Both the position numbers and the translations under genes were made by a program. A DNA stretch of 58,432 nt, filler included, from Platydemus manokwari (lineage: Eukaryota), in NCBI GenBank assembly GCA_037951405.1. It is 5 parts of 5 records of this genome, joined end to end, with 100 filler letters (N's around TTAATTAATTAA, not from the genome) between each part and the next. Parts side by side here need not be neighbours in the genome. Positions count along the whole stretch, not along the records: positions 32,481 to 43,866 come from JBBMOY010709984.1; 4 more parts are not named here. One strand, written 5' to 3'. Shown here piece after piece: positions 13,040-53,600 of the stretch. Every line of letters starts with the position of its first letter. The first letter of the stretch is position 1. The notes under the pieces are model-generated. The model was not told the DNA's origin and searched no databases. It saw only the letters and a program-made list of their open reading frames with translations.

Positions 13040-13990
13040 AAACATTTAACCTGGAATTGGTAGGCTTAAGTTAAGAAAAAGGGTCCTTGAGTGTAATGAA
13101 TTTACCTCAAATTTATATGTAATCATAATTTAACGAAATTCTTACATAAATTTCAACTTTATATCAAAAAGAAAGAACATCTAAATTATATTATCAAAAC
13201 AGTCCCATGCTGATAACCGAGACCTTGAAGATGGTTGTGCATATGACGGATCCTGGTTTCTCCCATCTACAATTAAATAAAAAGTATCATTGTAAAAATA
13301 ATATTTTTGTATATTGCGTGGTTATTGCTTCTAGAGTTGCTGCACTCCGGTGGCAAACTGAAAATAAGAATCAATTCCAATTCATACATCTTTCCAGTCC
13401 TTCAACGACCCAAAATCCAGATTTTCAACTTCCGGGATTATACAAATTCTGTTCGTTAACACGTCTATAACCGTCAATTTCGAACTCCATTTGTTCCCAC
13501 TATCCGTCAATGTGTTAATAAATTATTTTAAATATTTAGTTTTATTTTATTACAAATTATTATCATCTTATGATTGTGGGCATGCTTACAGAGGTCATTC
13601 AGTAGCATTTTGTGTGGTCTTCGTATATCACAAATAACTGATATTTAGAATGTCGAAAAGAGACAAGGGTGATTGTTGAACGGAGTACCTATTCCAATTC
13701 CAAAACTTCTTTTGTATTTGTGGCATCTCCGACGGTATGATTTACTTAATTTTGGTGAAATCTTGCCACATCGACAGATTTTGGATCTACGTATCCGATC
13801 TAGAATTCTACCTAGATACTTCAATAAAAAATTCAAAATATTTTCAAAGAATAACTAAACGATATAGACTTTTGCAATACACTACACAAATTTAAAATTA
13901 TATTCTGGGAATCCTTTTTTAACTTTATCCGATTCATAATTAGAGCTATAAGGCCCCAACTTAAAGATTATAGCGAAATCTTCATCTTTT
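13040..13990 (-). mobile_element. Merlin (IS1016/ISXO2-like) DNA transposon remnant, copy 1
   Basis: Zn-ribbon-like ICRCG...RRCHKYKRSFGIGIGTPFN. DDE-region fragments YNPG..SGFWVVEGLER, FLFSVCHRSAATLEAI and KPGSVICT. Nucleotide similarity to 18610-19790. Confidence 0.7.
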
Positions 13991-14104: not shown

Positions 14105-16516
14105 TTATACACAATTAAGAGCTTTACGAATAACTTTAAGATTCGTAACTGATTCAGGATTAGTTTTTAAAATTAAATTAGTCAAATTAGCCATGACTTT
14201 TTCAGATAGATTCTGTTCATCATTGGAAGGTTGAAGTTGATAATTTGATAATCGTTGATAGTTAAATGCTTTCAGCTTAACCAAATCTTTCCAACTGTCA
14301 TTCAATAAAATTTGCAAATTTGATAATTCTTTTGTTTTTTCATTATCTTCGATATAGATTTTACCTAAATTAAATTAAAAAATATACAAGATAACACTAA
14401 AAACACTTAACCTGATGTTGATTGGTTCATAGTTATTGATTCTTCTGATCGAAATGATTTCATAATATCTCTTGTTAACGTATTCATTAAATAAAGACTA
14501 AAATCATCACCGAAAGTGACGTCAGGAATTATTTCATTTAAATCTTCGTATTGACATTCTTCTAAACTATTATCCCCATAAGCCCTAATAAGCAAATCAC
14601 TAGTTTCCTTTGAACAATATGCATTTCCTGAATCATAAGATGGACCGAACGAAAAGTTCGATCCATAATCTAGATATGAAAGGACAGTGACTTTATTTCT
14701 CCTATCTTCTTTATACCCTAATAGATTTTGAGTGCCTGATTTTAATTTACCTATTTGATCGCCAATCGTAATAATTCTTTCATTTTCATTGATTTTTCCT
14801 TTGTTGTATGGATTTAAAATATTAAGATAAGTGGCTCTGTCATCAGAATGGATTTTCGAATCATTCGATAAGGAACATTGTGTCGAATCATTTGTTATCA
14901 AAATTTTTGCACCAGAATACAATTTATTTTTAAAACCTTGTATATTCACCAAAGTTGTCTGATAAAGTTTTGCAGCCTCATTCCAGCCTATTGATTTTTC
15001 ATTGAAACAATGAATACCATTGGAGTATAATAACAGAAGATCATTCTCGAGATTATCTAAACTATTCGAATAATAGCCACCCTTCAATCGTCGTTTGATG
15101 ACTTGCATATCAATCTGTTCAGTTAACTAAATGATTGACAGAAACTGTAAAATGTATTCGAAATATTGCTTATAATTACTTGAAATGAAAACGGAGCAAA
15201 ATGATCGACTAATGGATATTGAAAATAGTCTGCCGGATCGTAAGTGATCAATAAATTAATTAAATCCTCTGAAAATTTCTCCAAAGAAAATTTAATATCC
15301 AATGGTAAAAGTGGCACTTTAAAATGGCTTAAATCGGGGATGGGTTTAAATTTTTTAATTTGCGTGCCTGTCACAAAATTACCGACATTTTCTAGACTTT
15401 TATTACTACAATTTCCTTTAACACTGAAATGTTTCGAACTATTGACATTCTGAATGGTGGCAGAAACACCTTGTGACAACTGTCCAAATGATGAACGACG
15501 CTTAGGAACCTTAGTTAATAGATGCGATGAAGAATCTAAGTTGAAAATAACTTTTCAAAATGTTCATCATCACAATAATTTACCTTGATTAGATTTCTTG
15601 CTTGGTGAAGACTCAATTTTCTCTACTACACTTTCCATCAATTTACGTTTTAACTGATCTCGAGGTAAACCAACAAGAAAATATTTATCATTTTCATTTG
15701 ATCTTGATTTATTGGGGCGTTTACTTTTATTCCGATTGCCTAATGTAATACATTCATAAATATAATTATTTTATTTACGCTATAAGAAATAAAATATTCA
15801 TGTTTAAATACCGTAATCATAAAATCAATATATTTGCTTTCATATAGTTATTGTTAAGATTGAGATTATACCAAACTTAAAATTATACAAAAATTACTAT
15901 CGATGATGTAATATTAAAAGCGTTACACAATACATTAATTTTAATAACTTCAAATATTAATTAATTCATTAATTAAGTATTTACTCATAAGATTCACATT
16001 TGCTGTTGAATTTGGCATAGCAAACAAAAACCATATTTTCAAAACAAAATTTATCTTTAAAAAATAAAATATAATTTGCAATTCAAAATCAAAAAAATAT
16101 CCCAAAATACGTCAAAATGTTTATTTAAAAATTAGATTGAAATTTTATTTCTGAAGAATTATTGTTTTGGGTTTTTTGAATTTATCTAAATTTATTGACG
16201 AAATTGGAGAAGTTTCGTCAAAAACAATTGAATGAATAGGTGATTAATAAAGGCAAATGAATATAAGAAACTTAATACTAATTATTTGAAAACCAACTAG
16301 ATTATATGATTTAATTTCAAAACACATTGTACACGTACCATAATTCTGAATATTAATCTTGCATTCCCTATTCCGAGACTCATTAAGGTTTTCATATTGG
16401 GATATTATATCAGAATCAAGTTTATCGCAACCTTCTGTTTCGGTTTCAGATCTTTCTTCATTTTCTTCAGTTGATTCTGATCTATCTAAATTCTTGAAAT
16501 TACTTTTAAACCTCAT
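14105..16516 (-). CDS. BRD7: Bromodomain-containing protein 7/9-like (SWI/SNF subunit), 5 exons, about 554 aa
   Basis: Phase-consistent GT-AG exons: 16516-16339, 15739-15584, 15535-15180, 15126-14412, 14364-14105 (1665 nt). Bromodomain DPADYFQYPLVDHFAP...IDMQVIKRRL..YY...DLLLLYSN..CFN. BRD7/9-specific region GYKEDRRNKVTVLSYLDYG..SFGPSYDS...SKETSDLLIRAYGD. Exon 1 is inferred from phase only, and BRD7 versus BRD9 is not resolvable by eye. Confidence 0.85.
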
Positions 16517-17874: not shown

Positions 17875-17974
17875 NNNNNNNNNNNNNNNNNNNNNNNNNN
17901 NNNNNNNNNNNNNNNNNNTTAATTAATTAANNNNNNNNNNNNNNNNNNNNNNNNNNNNNNNNNNNNNNNNNNNN
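17875..17974. other. Artificial scaffold-joining spacer
   Basis: 44 N + TTAATTAATTAA + 44 N. Confidence 0.97.
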
Positions 17975-18609: not shown

Positions 18610-19790
18610 TGTTTAACTCCAGAAAATGCGGGTAAAGTTAAGAAAAAGTGATTTTGACCCAATTTTAATTATAATGTATTTCCGTGCATAATTTAATATA
18701 AAAAATTTGTTTTTAATCATAATTTAATGAAATTTTGATTAAAATTCAATTTTAGATGAAATTGGAGAGAAAAGCTCTAACAATCCTTATATATTATAGA
18801 TCATGGTTTCACAAACATACAATAAAATAAGATTATCATTTTAAATATAAAATTTCTTTATAACTTGTATTTATTGCTTTTAAATTCGATGCGCTTCGAC
18901 TGCGGACTGGAAATAATAAGCAATTCTTCTTCTTGTATCTTTCCAGTCCTCAATCGATCAAAATTCCAGATCTTTGAGGTCCTCGATTATATTTCTCCCT
19001 CCAAAATAGGCCTCATCAATTTTCACGACTTTATTTTTGCCACCGATAATTTTTCTGTGCCGCACTTTTTGTTCAAAAGCCTGGAATCAACAAATTTTGT
19101 AAGTAAATAAATTATATTAAATTCTAAGCTTTATTTTATTAAAAATTATTACCATTACGTAATCGTTGGCTTGCTTACGGAGGTCATTTGATAACACGCT
19201 TTTGTGTGGCTCCTGTGCATCACAAACAACTAATATTGAGAAAGTCGAATTGTTGAACCAAGTCCGTTATTCGAATTTCAATACTCCTTTTGCATTCGTG
19301 TCATCTCCAACTATATGATTTACTTGATTTAGATGAAATCTTCATTGTATTTCACATTGACAGATTTTTCATCTATGTATCCAATCTATTAAATAAACAT
19401 TTATGCACTTATTTTGAGTTAAAATATAATTGAATCGCATCTTTGAATAATTTCTATATCACTTTTTTATAAAATGATTGCATAAATGTTGGATATCGTT
19501 CCATTTGCTTCTAATCTAAAATAAGGGGTCCTCGGTAATTTTCAAATTATTACTTTTTCATCTACTTTGACCCATTTTTTAAATAATTTATTTCTCAGTG
19601 GATTTTAAAACTCCTGTGTATATAATATTCGATCGTAAACAACAAAAATTCTTCTCAAGTACTTAACTAAAAAATTCAAAATTTTTTTAAAGAATTTAAT
19701 TAAATAATCTATATATATTTTTGGCACTCACTCCACAAATTAAAAATTTTATTTTAGCACGCTTTATTAACTTTAGCCAAAAATTCTACT
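18610..19790 (-). mobile_element. Merlin (IS1016/ISXO2-like) DNA transposon remnant, copy 2, with introns
   Basis: IIGGKNKVVKIDEAYFGG[RK]YNRG...GLER...LLFPVRSRSASNLKAI...FVKP*SIIYKDC is the Merlin IGG..VEIDE..FG.RKY.RG signature. Zn-ribbon exon lies upstream. Apparent GT-AG intron at 19152-19081. Confidence 0.8.
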
Positions 19791-32380: not shown

Positions 32381-32480
32381 NNNNNNNNNNNNNNNNNNNN
32401 NNNNNNNNNNNNNNNNNNNNNNNNTTAATTAATTAANNNNNNNNNNNNNNNNNNNNNNNNNNNNNNNNNNNNNNNNNNNN
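32381..32480. other. Artificial scaffold-joining spacer
   Basis: 44 N + TTAATTAATTAA + 44 N. Confidence 0.97.
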
Positions 32481-35122: not shown

Positions 35123-35711
35123 TTAACTACTGACGTTTAATTTTTTCGCAAGCACACAACATTCGAGAATAGCACCCTTGCATTGAGAAGTATACATCCA
35201 AGGATAATAATTAGAAGCAATCAACACAGGCATACGATGAAATTTGACTTTGGGTTGGTTTTTAATGGAAATTTTAAGATTTTGAGATCCTTCCATGAGC
35301 AGGTTAAAGTAATTGGCCATGGTATTGTTCTCAAATATTATTTCATCTCCAATAGCGAGGTCTGCATTTTCCAGATCATCTAAAGCAAATTCGGATTTGA
35401 AATTTAAAATATTAAAATTTCCTATTTTAGAGTATGTTGAGGCGAGAATTTGCACGAATAAAGATTTCCCTGAGCTAGGGGGTCCGACGAATATAATTCC
35501 GTTGGTTTTTCCCGACTGCATACTGAGTACCAAACCCATCGAAATAATTTTTTTTATCGAAATCAGTGAATATATGATTGTCCTCCATATAATGTTTCTC
35601 GATATAAATATTAATTGAGTCAGTAATATTAGAATTATAGATGAAATTAGCGTTATTAACAAATTCATAGCTAAATCTCGTAATTTCATTACTGACTTCA
35701 GCAGTGTTCAT
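35123..35711 (-). pseudogene. Stand-alone superfamily-3 helicase, papillomavirus E1 / parvovirus NS1-like (frameshifted)
   Basis: Walker A GPPSSGKS, FALDDL, Walker B AIGDE, B' LMEG...ISIKNQ, motif C PVLIASN. The likely N-terminus MNTAEVSN...DFDKKNYF (from 35711) is in another frame, implying a frameshift near 35540. Confidence 0.85.
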
Positions 35712-35845: not shown

Positions 35846-36010
35846 TCAATAACTATACATTTTTTTACGAGTTTTATCAGCAGCTTTAATTTCATACTCG
35901 CAATTGACACAATAAGAATAATAAAATGCATAACAAGTTTGTTTATGTAGCACACTAGGATCAGGACGACCACAATAACATTTACCCAAGTCACCAACAA
36001 TACTATTCAT
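35846..36010 (-). CDS. 54-aa Cys/His-rich ORF (possible zinc-binding protein)
   Basis: MNSIVGDLGKCYCGRPDPSVLHKQTCYAFYYSYCVNCEYEIKAADKTRKKMYSY*. Its ATG (36010-36008) overlaps the Rep stop TGA (36009-36007) as ATGA. Confidence 0.45.
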   Translation of the reverse strand: MNSIVGDLGKCYCGRPDPSVLHKQTCYAFYYSYCVNCEYEIKAADKTRKKMYSY

Positions 36011-37114
36011 TCCTTCGTAGAATCCCCTTTCTTCTGCGGAACATCCATTTGGGCAAGGCGGTAATTCAATGCTAGCTTTGCATAAACACTTAAGGTCGGG
36101 GTGCGGTTCGGCTGAATATCAAGATCAACATCTTCATCATATAATTTTTTATTAAATTTATGAATTTTAATCCGTCTACTAATGGCATCTAATACTTCTA
36201 CACTGCATTTTAGGATAAAAATATCCCAAATCATTTAAGCATATAATTCTAGGCATTTGCGCAGGTATATAACCAGTAAAATATTTAATATTAATATTAT
36301 GCTCAAAAGCACAATCTACCATATTCAAAACATCATGACACGGTAATTTAGATATATTAATATCATCAATTACGATGCCATCAATAATATTCGGATTATC
36401 ACTAATTCTGCCAAAATTTTGAATACTAGTTATATGAACCGGACTGCGAAAATGTGCTAGTGCAAAGTTGGTTTCACCAATATTCGTAGGCCCAATAAAT
36501 ATATGAGTTAAATTGTCATAAACATCAATAAATTTGATATTAAATTTCGTATGATGAGCTTAGGTAACACATCCAAATTCAGCATCAAAAGTTTCAGATA
36601 TAACTCTTCTTTTACAACAATAAGTCTCAGGACGTAAACGTTTTATTACAGACATAGCTTGATGCCAAACATTGATAGGCGGACCAGATAATATAGTATT
36701 AACATCTTTACTTGCTTCGCCATAAGTAACAACTTCTGTGCCAGGTATACGAGTTTCAAGTTTGCAACTATATAATATTGCTTTTCTTTTGTTTTGTGGA
36801 CTAACTGGTGTAACGAATTTTACACCTTATAATTCGCAAGCTTTCCTGAAATTTACAGCATGTTTAAATTCGACATTAGCTTGAACATGACGATAACCAT
36901 TATCAGAAACTAATAATTATTATTAAATAAATTTAAATAATAAATAAAGTAAACCTTCTTTTTGAAATATCATATATTTTGTATTAGTTTTCCATAAATG
37001 TTCATAATGATTTTGATTACATTCATAATTACTCAAGGGGAAATTAAAGGAGTAGTTTCGGTGTCTTGATCCTGTTCCGTTATCGATGGCATTATGGTGA
37101 CTTAGTAATTCCAT
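36007..37114 (-). pseudogene. rep: CRESS-DNA-virus type rolling-circle Rep (HUH endonuclease + SF3 helicase), intron-containing and disabled
   Basis: Motif I RNYSFNF; KYMIFQKE|V across intron 36954-36910; motif II GYRHVQANVEF; motif III YSCKLETRIPGTEVVTYG; Walker A GPTNIGET; Walker B GIVIDD; INIKY...IPAQMPRIICLN (motif C); Arg finger DAISRR. In-frame stops at 36827-36829 and 36560-36562, and a frameshift near 36210. Confidence 0.88.
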
Positions 37115-40100
37115 GTTTAGATCTCAACTAATATTTTGTACATTTTTTATAAGAATATTTTATCTTAATATTCTCTAATATTAATCTAATTTAATTTATC
37201 ATAACTTTTTATGGGTGTATTTTGATCATATTTGTATGAAAACAATTATAAATATCAAGAAAACTATCTTACTATGACACAACCAGGGCAAAATACGTCT
37301 AGCTTATCTATTTTCATGCATTTATTCAAATAATATGATTGTTGATCGTTCCGGTGGGAAGACTTTCCAGTGCTGGAATTGTTCATTATCCGAATTTTTA
37401 TGCTAAGATAAAATAATTATTCAAAACAAAATTTAATATTAAAACTGGAACAAGCGATGACTTGGAATGTTTTATACAACGAAAGACACGGAACACTCAA
37501 CGAGATGTTGAGAAGCCAGTTGGAAATACGAACATGTCAGTCATAAAATTCTGAAATACAATTCATAACAACTTCGATGCTCATATAAGAGCATATGAGG
37601 AAGAAATGATGGTCAGTGAAACAATCGTAAAGATGCAGCTAAAAAAGTATAAAAATAATGTGGAAGTAATATACAAGTTATGGTACAGTGAGAGGAGAAT
37701 AAAGAAATGATTTAAATTAATTGGCATTTTGATAATTATTTAATAATTCGTCAATGGCATTAGAATGTTTATTTGAAATTATTTAGATTTATTGGCAAAG
37801 ATCAAAATTTTTGTAATTAATCAAAAGCTATAAATAATTAACATAATAGCCATTTCAAATTGTTACCAAAGGAGGCATAAAATATCACGAAATGTATGCA
37901 TATAGTCTGGAGAGTAGATAAATTTTAAATAATACATGGTCATAATTAAATCAAATAATATAATCTAAATGGATAATATATAAAAGACTGATTTAAAAGC
38001 CAAATAAATAGAACGGGTAATTTAATCAATAAAATAAATTTTATTCTATTAATAATAAATGAAAATAATTATTTAAAATTACAATTTCACAGGATAATGT
38101 CTCGTTATACATAATAAAGACATTTGTTTAATAAAGACGATTATATACTTTCCATTTATTTACAACAATTAAACCTTACCGGGAATAAAGATGTTTAAGC
38201 TTACCAAAAATAAATTTTTTTTACTCATTCACAATTCATAAAATTATTTCAAAAAATCGGACATCCTTATCCGTACTATTATTACTATTCTTATTATTGT
38301 TAGATGTCAATATTTTCAATGATTTTAACCCATTAATAAGAATATTTTTTCATAATTGTATAAAATTAGGTCATTAGAATCTTATACCTAATTCTCATCT
38401 CTTGAATTTACGATCAAACTAATGACCGCAAATTACCTTACAATTTTCTGTTTAAATAAATTTAAATTAACATCTTTTGTAATTCACAAATTATTATGAA
38501 AGTTAATTTCATAAAACACATTACCCAAGATACCAGCTCACATATCATTTATTGATCCAAGCTCGGAATTATAGGCCATTTCTGGAATCTCAGAGTTCGA
38601 TTTGAAGGTGGGATCCTATTAAATTTTTGCTACACTGAATCAAAATTCCACAAATTAAATTTTTAGCTTTCAATAGAGCATGAGAAATATTCTTCAGAAG
38701 AATCAAGTGATAAAAACTTGGAATAACTTTTTAAGTTAACCAAATAGCTGACAATCAAATATTTTTCTCGTGTTAATTTTCATATAAAAAATAATTGAAT
38801 TACTGATGAAGAATTAGTTTTTAAATGAAACCAAAAGGATACTAAAACTTTAAAATGCTATATAATATTATTACCGATGATTAAATCAATAAATCATATA
38901 CTTAGTAAATCATATACTTCCCGATGTGTAAGATTCGGGATGATTATTAAGAATGAAATGTTAAGAGAAAGAAAACGAATCACGTTTAAACGGATTATTA
39001 ACACCAACAATATTTAAATTACCATTATTATGTTACCCTTTTAGTGACTTAAAAGAAATGAAACCTATTTTAAAGGAAAAGCCAGAAGCTATAATTGGGT
39101 TTGAAAGATTTGTTTGAAAGAACTTATTGCATTACTAAAATCAGCTAAAATATATTACTAATTATTTTGTAATTATAATTACTAATATTTAGAGTTCATT
39201 CATGAATTATTTTTCACTCAAATTTACATCAGATCACATCGATCTTGTTCATTACACAAATAATTGATCATAAAGTCAGGTTTTGATTCGTTAATTTTTC
39301 ACATAACAATAATAAATATTATTCCTTATTATTATTATTCATTATTAAAATTTCTTGGAGTAACAGCTTTTCCAAACATTACTAATTGAAATTTTTTTTT
39401 CTACATTACAAATTTTAAAGTCATGACATTTAATAAGGCATAATAAACCAAAAGTTCAATAAAGTAAATGTTGAGGATTTTTGGATAAATTTCAAGAGAC
39501 GGGAGATATATAAAATAAAGACAAATATAAAAAATACGATTTTTGCACTCTAAAACCCTTTTTTTTTACATTTTACAAATATGCATGATTACACAACAGC
39601 CAAAGTATGGTATCCAGGTAATCAAATATTTAAATTGAAGATTCCAATTTGGTTAAAGAACATGATTACATAACATCAGAAAAGGATTGACTAATCCCGA
39701 TCATAGAAAACCAATGGACATAATTGGGATTGTGGAAATAACATATCAAAATAAAAGGTAACACAAAAATACACGAAGTTTCAAGTATAAATAACGATGC
39801 AAAGATGGCTTATTGCCACTTGAAAGACGCTATTCGAGTCTATTGTTGTAGAATGTAGTTGAATTTGTTTATGATTATTTTATGTGAACTTAAGTAGCAC
39901 GGTTTTCTTGTGAAAATAATTTGCAACTTTTATTTCATTTTAATAAATCCAACAGGTACATGTTGCAGGTCTGCATTGGAAATTAGTAAAATTGTCCTAG
40001 CAAAGCAGGAATCATTGTCATAATCGAAGGTATATTTAAAGTAACTATTTTGTTTTACTAACTTAGCAGTTCGTCAGTATTATCTATGATATAGTAAAAG

Positions 40101-43866: not shown

Positions 43867-43966
43867 NNNNNNNNNNNNNNNNNNNNNNNNNNNNNNNNNN
43901 NNNNNNNNNNTTAATTAATTAANNNNNNNNNNNNNNNNNNNNNNNNNNNNNNNNNNNNNNNNNNNN
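43867..43966. other. Artificial scaffold-joining spacer
   Basis: 44 N + TTAATTAATTAA + 44 N. Confidence 0.97.
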
Positions 43967-50699: not shown

Positions 50700-53600
50700 C
50701 TCACCTCGACTTTGATAAACTTTTGTATGTCTTGTAAAGTGGTATCTTCCTTAATTGAGCTTGCAGTGGCACCAAATCTGAGTTTCGGGAGCATCAAATC
50801 TTTTCTTTTTATTTTTGCGCTTTGAATTGAATTTGTTGAGATAGATACCAAGAGTTCTGAGTTCTAAGGAATATGGAATGTGACAGATGGCTAGTTGATT
50901 TTTTTGTTTTGTCTTGTAGCTTGGAAGTGTTAGCAGTAGGTAGTAGCAACATAGGTTGTAACGAAGAGTTAGTTGGTTGATTGCAGTACTGTTTGTTAGC
51001 TTGAAACAGATCATCAGATATGTATCGTATAATTGGATAATTGAAATGTTTAGGGAGTCGTGTTCACTGGGCTAGGAGTAAGAAGTCGTAGCATTCGAGA
51101 AGCTGGGTGTGAGATCCTATTTGGACAGAGCAGGAGAGTATATTTAAGTTATTAATAACTTTCTTTTAAAAAGTGAATGAATAAATTATATTTGGATGAT
51201 AATTTTAAAATTTTAGATTTAATGAAAGTGATTCGTATATAGTTAAGCAGTGTGAAAATTTTAAAATTATGTAAATTTGGAGGTCTGTTAATTAATATGA
51301 AAAGTTCTAATATGTGAATTAATTTAATATGAATTTGATATCAAAGATGATGAAAATTGATAAGTATTTAAATTGGGTGAAACAAGAAATGATTAAAGGT
51401 GATGAATGACAAAAAAATAATCAAGGAGCAATATTAATCTATTACTGTGTGAGGGGGTGTGATAAATTTGGCCTACCTTTATTTGTGTGGGCAGTATATG
51501 TGGCGTAAGCATCTCTTAACAGTGCTGTGATTATTAGTGAGAGAAGAAAATTAGTTATTGTGTTGTCGAGTTCTATTAACTTTAAGATTTTATCATTATG
51601 TGGGTCTCATGATTCTAATACACCTATGTTAAGGACATCTAATGTTGTTTGGTGCCTATTAGTGATAGCTATTTATTTTGTTATGGATTTGTACTTATCG
51701 TAGTTCAGTGATCTATATAGGCCAAAGTTAGTGTCCATATTATATGGTATTTTAAGATATATAATGTACTTGTATTTTTTTTTGCATTATTATGTATAAT
51801 TAGACCAGGTCTAAGCTTTGTGTTGATCTCAGCTGGTGCTAAATTTATATCAGCGTCTATCTCAAGGGACTGAAGGTATTTTTCTATGATGTCAAGAATC
51901 TTGGCGTGTCGTTTATTGCTTTTTCCGGGTATGGCAGGGCAATGTATGAAAACATGTGCAGCAATTTCATGTTCTGTGTTAGATCTTCTACATAGCAGGG
52001 GCTTATGAAACTTAATGAAGTATAGAGAGTAATTAAAGATGAGGAAGTTATTCCGGGCCCAGTGGGTGAAAATTCAGACTTCAGGAGAAAGATGACAATT
52101 ATATAGGGGTTTTTGGGAACGTGGTGAAGCAGAAAAACAGTGAACCAGACAACCTTGTTTTTGGAGGGTCTTCCACTGATTATAATGGAATATTTGGACG
52201 GGGTCATGGGGTATATCTGAGAGTTTGTTCCTGTTATCGACTGAAAAGAAATATGTGAGGTTTTTTCTGATGCGAATTTCGGATACATTGTATAAGAATT
52301 CAATGTTGATGTTGTATTTTCGTAATTTTTTAACTGAGGAACGGATTTGTGTCCACCAAGTTGAGATGGGGTATTTAGATGAGAGGATATTATCGCTTAG
52401 CCATGATAGTGTAGTGTGTATGGTGTTTGGGTGAGATGGGTCGAGTCTTTTACCAACAATGTATAGCAAGTGTGATACAATAAATTCACGGATCTTGTGC
52501 ATCGAGGTCGATTAGTGATTTATTAAAGGATTGTGGAGGTGATACGAAGTTATGAGTGCTCGAATCTTTTGAAACATTAAAGTTGAAATTATTTGGACAT
52601 ATATTATAATTACGTAAAAGTGGGGAAATTTTTCAACGTTAAAAAATATTAATAAAGAAAGAACATATAATAAGATATCTGCATTTGAATTCGAAGTGAT
52701 AAATCTGGTAGTAGATAATCTAGAAGGGTGAACAAGATTATAGTTAAAATTATTATTTTGATAAGAATTCATAGGTTTATGTTGCCGTCTAATTCGATTT
52801 TTTAGTTTGATTTGGATTGTTGTGGTATTGAGTTAGTGGTGCGAGGTCAGAATAGTTATGAAGTGGTTTGAATCTGTTGACTGAGTGAAATCTGTTGATC
52901 GGGTTCGGAGCATAGGCTGTTGGGGACGTGAATAACTGTTTGCTGTGATCGGGCAGTCGGTGTGGGGAGTAGAGCGCGTCCGGTTGTAGTTTTCGGGATT
53001 AGTTGGTGTCGGAATTGACCAGCAATGTGACAAGCATTGTGATTTGTGAATTGAGGTTTCGGAGAAGCGGTATCTCTGGTTAAATCAACATAATACCAGG
53101 AAATATTATCATTTACAGGTCTAAATGAAGAAGGATAAGTGTGAAAATCATTAACAAGAAAGTTTTGTAATCGGTCTCTGGTGCGGGTTCCGTTACCATG
53201 GAGATCTGAGAGAATTCGACCAGTAAGGAAGCCAGTAAGGGATGAGATGATGGACCTTGGAAGAGAATTCATGTTATGAACATGATTTAATTTACGGTCA
53301 CCGGATTGGCTTCTCGGTCTAGATTTCCGTCTCTGGATTCTAGATAAATATCATAATTATTTTCATTGAAGAGAGTATATGGCCGGGCAGAGTAAAATCC
53401 ATGTAATTAAGGACGGGTGTTCTCCATAGTATGACGAGAGGGGTTCTCGTATTGATTTCCATTTGGATTCCGCCGGGGATAGGCAAAGATATCTCCATTT
53501 TCACCAGAAAATGAAAAAATTCTGCGATCAACACGATGATGTAATCTTCTACAATGTAGACAAAAAAAATAATTACACCAGGGATTTGTGATTTGTATGT
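50700..53600 (-). mobile_element. Decayed non-LTR retrotransposon (LINE)
   Basis: Less AT-rich block with ORF fragments. RT-like pieces in order: PAEIN..PG (about 51820), SVQIGS (cf. GVPQGS, about 51120), YISDDL (about 51015), IPYSLELRTLGIYLN (cf. KYLGV, about 50850). Confidence 0.45.

Follow-up and report, generated by a model that had tools for sequence, protein, structure and literature searches.

The window, by which we mean the whole 58,432-nt stretch of Platydemus manokwari DNA analysed here, carries on its minus strand a decayed CRESS-type Rep gene with a putative intron, a Cys-rich reading frame and the remnant of a second helicase gene. These features, together with three host introns that served for comparison, are located as follows.

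36955..37114, minus strand: Rep exon 1, with the ATG at 37114, the motif I region at about 37054-37040 and a strand ending in QxE (alignment and profile match)
36910..36954, minus strand: putative phase-1 intron, GT..AG, with three in-frame TAA (sequence, and a site shared with homologues P0001, P0003 and P0005)
36007..36909, minus strand: Rep exon 2, decayed, with motif II at 36889-36881, motif III at 36772-36761 and the SF3 helicase (alignment)
35846..36118, minus strand: 90-codon Cys-rich frame overlapping the 3′ end of Rep, without an ATG near its start and stop-free despite the decay of Rep
35123..35711, minus strand: second SF3 helicase remnant, parvovirus NS1/papillomavirus E1-like (Pfam PPV_E1_C, 5e-08; Parvo_NS1, 2.6e-06)
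15536..15583, minus strand: comparison intron of 48 nt in a BRD7/9-like gene (sequence)
15127..15179, minus strand: comparison intron of 53 nt in the same gene, joining the bromodomain halves across a frame change
14365..14411, minus strand: comparison intron of 47 nt in the same gene (sequence)

A search with the Rep frame, in which stops were written as X, returned 550 proteins at E ≤ 0.001 among 1.84 billion representatives. The profile of the best homologues matched the Rep endonuclease of FBNYV and PCV2 (E 3e-10), an Atlas search with a homologue yielded mostly Cressdnaviricota Reps, and the model of a homologue resembled Rep nuclease domains with target-normalised TM scores of 0.77 (6h8o) and 0.75 (5xor). 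The gene shows the architecture of a CRESS Rep, namely an HUH endonuclease with motifs I, II and III and an SF3 helicase. Its motif II reads HxQ, and the profile matches place the endonuclease nearer to the nano/circovirus type. In exon 2, TAA stops interrupt the frame at 36829 and 36562, and a frameshift occurs near 36210; in addition, there is a gap of roughly 9-12 codons near 36660, and the Walker A motif (36493-36470) is degenerate. Given these stops, the frameshift and the Walker A defect, the window copy is not an intact, functional Rep; it is a decayed fossil, and the intron has become immaterial to it. A preliminary description of this DNA had missed that the gene is otherwise broken; its suggestion that splicing gates the production of active Rep fails for this copy on account of that damage and because the unspliced reading is not conserved among relatives. 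In run X1, one 5010-nt contig covers 33133-38142 without a difference and at a depth of 13, like its neighbours. Neither a join skipping the 45 nt nor a second Rep copy at 80% identity or above was found in this single run, which is possibly the window's own source and in which one search pass missed even the spanning contig.

All five in-frame stops of the Rep gene are TAA, and a reading of TAA as Gln was considered for this reason. It was rejected because the host uses CAA/CAG: host exons contained 23 Gln among 557 codons, all CAA or CAG, in stretches that were picked stop-free, so that the count of zero TAA is partly one of construction. The ABHD17-like frame, moreover, terminates with TAA, and no code accounts for the frame change in homologue P0003 (see below). 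The host is an AT-rich eukaryote (G+C about 26%) with the standard code.

The insert measures exactly 45 nt (36954..36910, minus strand) and sits directly after the QKE codons of the Rep frame, at the end of the QxE-bearing strand and ahead of motif II. It starts with GTTTAC, ends with TTATTAG and is preceded by the exon end AAGAAG, thus displaying the GT donor and YAG acceptor of a major (U2) intron. Its G+C content is 3/45 (6.7%), whereas the Rep pieces on its two sides have 30% and 31%, in agreement with the earlier statement that it is almost pure A/T; that account had given one in-frame TAA, where there are three (36925, 36922 and 36919). Bounds of this kind are rare, with 439 of 114,368 45-mers in the window (0.38%) beginning with GT and ending with AG. 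Two GT..AG pairs of 30-120 nt would remove the stops and keep the frame, one of which (75 nt) also deletes motif II. The donor GTTTAC departs strongly from the textbook GTAAGT. One host donor reads GTTAAG, and splice-site hexamers showed no window-wide enrichment, hence no host consensus could be derived. From the conserved Glu of QxE to the His of motif II, the window copy has a distance of 23 codons and P0001 one of 25. This spacing was scored in 111 of 165 sequences, the other 54 not being scorable, and ranged from 6 to 10 in 109 of them, with 8 in 69. Subtraction of the 15 codons of the insert restores the modal 8, as the preliminary description had proposed, and the 25 codons of P0001 are likewise brought to 8.

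The BRD7/9-like gene, which matches Pfam Bromodomain and DUF3512, provides the host introns for comparison. They look real, and the sizes previously given for them (47, 48 and 53 nt) were confirmed. Their G+C content is 17-25%, compared with 7% in the 45-nt insert, and the spacer sizes inferred for the Rep clade (45, 51 and 55 nt) are comparable to theirs, based on n = 3 host introns. Several other elements were observed in the window. The BRD7/9-like gene is flanked by a decayed element in two diverged copies (70-83%; 13109-13852 and 18703-19695) separated by about 5.6 kb, decayed LTR-retrotransposon pol pieces (RT_RNaseH) lie at 9217-10287 (plus strand), and a probable decayed non-LTR retroelement occupies 51445-53350 (minus strand). 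Weak matches to Hemopexin and Death domains were seen as well and, together with the small introns, suggest an invertebrate host; an Atlas search with one host exon yielded no lineage. Blocks of 44 N + TTAATTAATTAA + 44 N at 9032-9131, 17875-17974, 32381-32480 and 43867-43966 were taken for scaffold gaps; one of them separates the viral locus from the ABHD17-like gene.

The closest homologues of the window Rep are P0001, P0002, P0003 and P0005 (47-59% identity). P0002 starts after motif II and is hence uninformative on the spacer. The three with a visible N-terminus (P0001, P0003 and P0005, 47-51% identical) are all interrupted at the same codon as the window copy, and the comparison of intron position that had been recommended earlier thus revealed a shared site. 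In P0001, 17 unrelated residues (51 nt, open frame) occupy this site. The N-terminus of P0003 matches the +1 frame of window exon 1 (12/16 identical, score 56, 0/3000 shuffles), from which a frame-shifting spacer of 55 nt (3n+1) is deduced ahead of exon 2, while the ORF of P0005 begins within the spacer and is truncated there. These ORFs were apparently called without a splicing model. The homologue spacers were deduced from protein translations, so that their GT/AG ends are compatible rather than observed: donors would read GT-AAR-T (P0001) and GTN-AAY (P0003), and acceptors TTY-ATA-G or TTY-TCA-G, an acceptor test that 48% of random residues pass. Across window and homologues, the spacer interiors are mutually unrelated and the ends splice-compatible. 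At the level of protein translations, the site is therefore conserved, with interior length and sequence free to vary. The spacer-bearing homologues are stop-free over 296-449 residues, retain motif III, have an undamaged Walker A, and stem from contigs of 2.8-4.3 kb, one of them also from an ENA source. A structural model of P0001 placed the spacer as an unstructured segment between strands 100-106 and 131-142, a result that is not independent because the alignment has no depth there.

These homologues bear directly on the supposition that the insert arose by AT-rich insertion or slippage after integration and is unique to the window copy, which the preliminary description had named as the case that would overturn an intron. 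The copy is decayed, and low-complexity stretches like the insert occur at many other places of the genome, as this supposition would have it. However, the interruption falls at the same codon in three homologues of 47-51% identity, and GT..AG bounds are rarely met by chance, as calculated above. Unless the interruptions in the homologues are assembly artefacts, a post-integration origin is already refuted, and we give it hardly any credence. It is also very improbable that the clade ancestor acquired a coding loop that later decayed in some members. The 17 residues of P0001 are indeed open and translatable as a loop, the site falls in a hairpin at the surface that links two strands, and a looser motif scan detected a few distant Reps with loops of 11-15 residues here; yet the spacer of P0003 is 3n+1 within an otherwise intact gene, the interiors share no amino-acid similarity, and the insert of the window is 93% A/T.

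Phylogenetic analysis pointed to a single gain. A maximum-likelihood tree from which exon 1 and the spacer had been left out (22 rows, selected from 165) united the window with P0001, P0002, P0003 and P0005 in one clade (100/99), and a quick 45-row tree agreed with this grouping. Twelve outgroup Reps lack the spacer, and a single change separates the 4 spacer-bearing from the 12 spacer-free rows, a value reached by 1 of 500 shuffles. A JGI scan revealed 9 distant loci (27-42%), five of which (L001, L002, L003, L004 and L007) possess the site but no spacer; the remaining loci lack the site or are diverged there. No relative was found in IMG/VR with the clade alignment (75 candidates), P0002 (24) or the second helicase (29), nor among 80 candidates in GTDB, and 5 candidates included no ORF consisting of exon 1 only. 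Missing N-termini are common in the calls: P0004, P0015, P0008, P0020, P0049 and P0002 are affected, like most Reps nearest the clade, and P0004 and P0015 share a start residue just past motif II. Such Reps may hide the same or another intron.

A 45/48-nt GT..AG look-alike upstream of motif I in L003/L001 was examined as a possible intron and rejected, since its frame is conserved as protein, with 12 synonymous versus 3 non-synonymous changes in 23 codons, followed by TAA TAA ATG. The corresponding regions (L001 1719-1991 and L003 1-130) contain a conserved unknown ORF ending in TAA TAA directly 5′ of the Rep ATG. L001 (491-4594) holds a Rep without intron that looks intact (1995-2867); it has an Ulp1/N-terminal part on one side and a zf-RVT C-terminal part on the other. 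These surroundings look like a non-LTR retroelement, and this Rep probably represents a further integration, in a soil eukaryote.

Downstream of the window Rep, the second SF3 helicase follows after 300 nt on the same strand. It also matched B19V NS1 (6e-05), is probably frameshifted near 35550 and, judging from its adjacency, may belong to the same element as Rep. The Cys-rich frame between them matched no Pfam family above the cut-off. A TTCAG acceptor at 36112 is in phase with the Rep donor, a phase shared by 2 of 5 nearby AG; alternative splicing from this donor to 36112, opening the putative Cys-rich frame, would be allowed by the phase. One could accordingly imagine an undescribed lineage of invertebrate two-helicase ssDNA elements in which exon 1 serves as a shared leader, its donor being joined in one case to the near acceptor, giving full Rep, and in the other to 36112, giving the ATG-less Cys-rich frame, in the manner of the alternatively spliced early genes of polyomaviruses and with an intron gained independently between motifs I and II; we regard this scheme as improbable. 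Among the frames scanned, no capsid gene was recognised with Pfam, ANTATTAC occurred at chance level and not at all upstream of Rep within 37114-38270, and no clear origin hairpin emerged, all of which decay may hide. Terminal inverted repeats flanking the locus were absent from the longest 25 of 114 pairs.

The surroundings of the gene also raise the question whether the intron, though real, arose in endogenous, transposon-like or host-kept Rep elements instead of a free virus. The window copy is embedded in AT-rich DNA without a detected capsid gene or origin stem-loop, relatives did not turn up in IMG/VR, and the distant L001 lies between pieces of an Ulp1-bearing retroelement. Against such an origin, the homologues, at about 50% identity and on contigs of 2.8-4.3 kb, have no stops and keep their catalytic motifs intact, the single run X1 held no second copy at 80% or above, which speaks against an active transposon here, and the longest 25 of 114 pairs contained no terminal inverted repeats. 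We consider an endogenous origin rather unlikely.

Taken as a whole, the 45 nt likely represent a short spliceosomal intron of the major GT-AG class. The ancestor of the clade probably acquired it in a single event, and it would be constitutively removed, the window copy being a decayed fossil; this assignment is drawn from sequence comparison. An inherited spliceosomal intron would be expected to show a conserved site, ends that are kept, interiors without resemblance and a free length, here including one not divisible by three. Neither a coding loop nor a one-off insertion predicts this pattern, and both are disfavoured for that reason. According to the proposed course of events, the clade ancestor would have replicated in nuclei of a host with AT-rich DNA and small introns. 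There, a short intron in phase 1 would have arisen next to an exon ending in AG, to be removed constitutively by the host spliceosome. With motifs II and III as well as the helicase encoded by exon 2, any spacer that contains a stop or changes the frame would make splicing obligatory. What stands of the earlier proposal that the element was adapted to the spliceosome of this host is the probable spliceosomal nature and the size class of the intron, which belongs to the clade as such and therefore was not fitted to this host following its integration.

It is a separate matter whether the intron would be retained in a regulated manner, such that splicing efficiency times the production of active Rep and unspliced RNA yields a short product or none. 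Every catalytic part past motif I needs removal of the intron, the donor looks weak, and a stop (window) or frameshift (P0003) prevents read-through. Regulated gating nevertheless seems quite unlikely. The unspliced reading gives a stop after about 10 codons in the window, a 17-residue read-through in P0001, which lacks any block, and a frameshift in P0003, unlike the RepA/Rep pair, and the window copy yields no active Rep whichever way it is spliced. Since the unspliced reading varies between clade members, a RepA-like second product is not expected, and the intron does not demonstrate a working switch in the Platydemus manokwari genome.

An inherited intron at this site would add a clade-wide, probably independent gain to the evolution of CRESS Reps, and production of the metal-binding motif II, of the catalytic tyrosine and of the helicase would alike depend on one splice. 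The integrated copy ties the clade to a small-intron, AT-rich eukaryote, and intron size may therefore be usable as a host marker for metagenomic relatives. Gene callers blind to splicing mis-annotate such Reps by read-through, in the wrong frame or with a truncated start.

Introns of the genomovirus/mastrevirus type lie after the endonuclease domain of Rep, and the unspliced RNA encodes RepA. The window clade resembles this group in having a probable spliceosomal intron in a CRESS Rep, at a position inherited by the clade, with splicing predicted to be needed for the full Rep. It differs in that its intron lies between motifs I and II, ahead of motif II, and in that no unspliced product is conserved, the unspliced reading of the window copy ending inside the intron. 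In porcine circovirus, unspliced RNA encodes the full Rep and the spliced form Rep′ has a replaced C-terminus. As proposed here for the window clade, the host spliceosome processes the Rep transcript of an animal ssDNA virus; full Rep would be the spliced form in the window clade and is the unspliced form in porcine circovirus.

A genealogy of Rep introns names two origins, a single one for the gemini/genomovirus intron (Genomoviridae, Mastrevirus, Becurtovirus, Capulavirus and Grablovirus) and a second, independent one for porcine circovirus (10.1101/687855). Cyclo- and cruciviruses contribute additional putative introns here and there. A putative 56-nt intron is placed inside the endonuclease domain of cyclovirus CN9E (PMC8622408), a putative 100-nt Rep intron is given for mongoose cyclovirus isolates (PMC8471302), and cruciviruses are assigned putative introns within the endonuclease domain (PMC5822885) as well as 36 spliced Reps (PMC7468197). 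Unclassified viruses with one or two Rep introns comprise capybara group 7 (PMC6723397), two-intron tortoise-associated Reps (PMC7077246) and those of PMC6186406. The preliminary description was right that spliced Reps occur in mastreviruses and genomoviruses with the intron downstream of motif III, but its framing was too narrow in view of the endonuclease-domain introns of cruciviruses (PMC5822885) and a cyclovirus (PMC8622408). The intron of CN9E would follow motif II, as its downstream ORF lacks motifs I and II (PMC8622408), and that of crucivirus CRUV-38-B/39-B splits motifs I-II from III, whereas the window intron splits I from II and leaves motif II in exon 2. In the literature search, no Rep intron was encountered that separates motif I from motif II, in a field where positions are often stated solely in figures, supplements or GenBank records, and the accessible parts of PMC10288648, PMC10269781 and 10.1101/341131 contain nothing on an intron at this site. 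This kind of intron is thus already known in several CRESS groups, and its position between motifs I and II appears to be new, with priority not established. Unlike the cyclo- and cruciviruses, the window Reps form an unclassified clade, but the introns are alike in being short, GT..AG, located in a CRESS Rep and predicted from sequence.

For planarians, virus-like elements termed PEVE/PIVE have been described, in an account whose available part does not mention an intron (PMC3198968). The window locus differs from them in that no inverted terminal repeats were detected among the longest 25 of 114 pairs. It recalls the two-helicase layout of PEVE in that a Rep-like gene and a second NS1/E1-like SF3 helicase, possibly parts of one element, lie side by side in an AT-rich, invertebrate-like genome.
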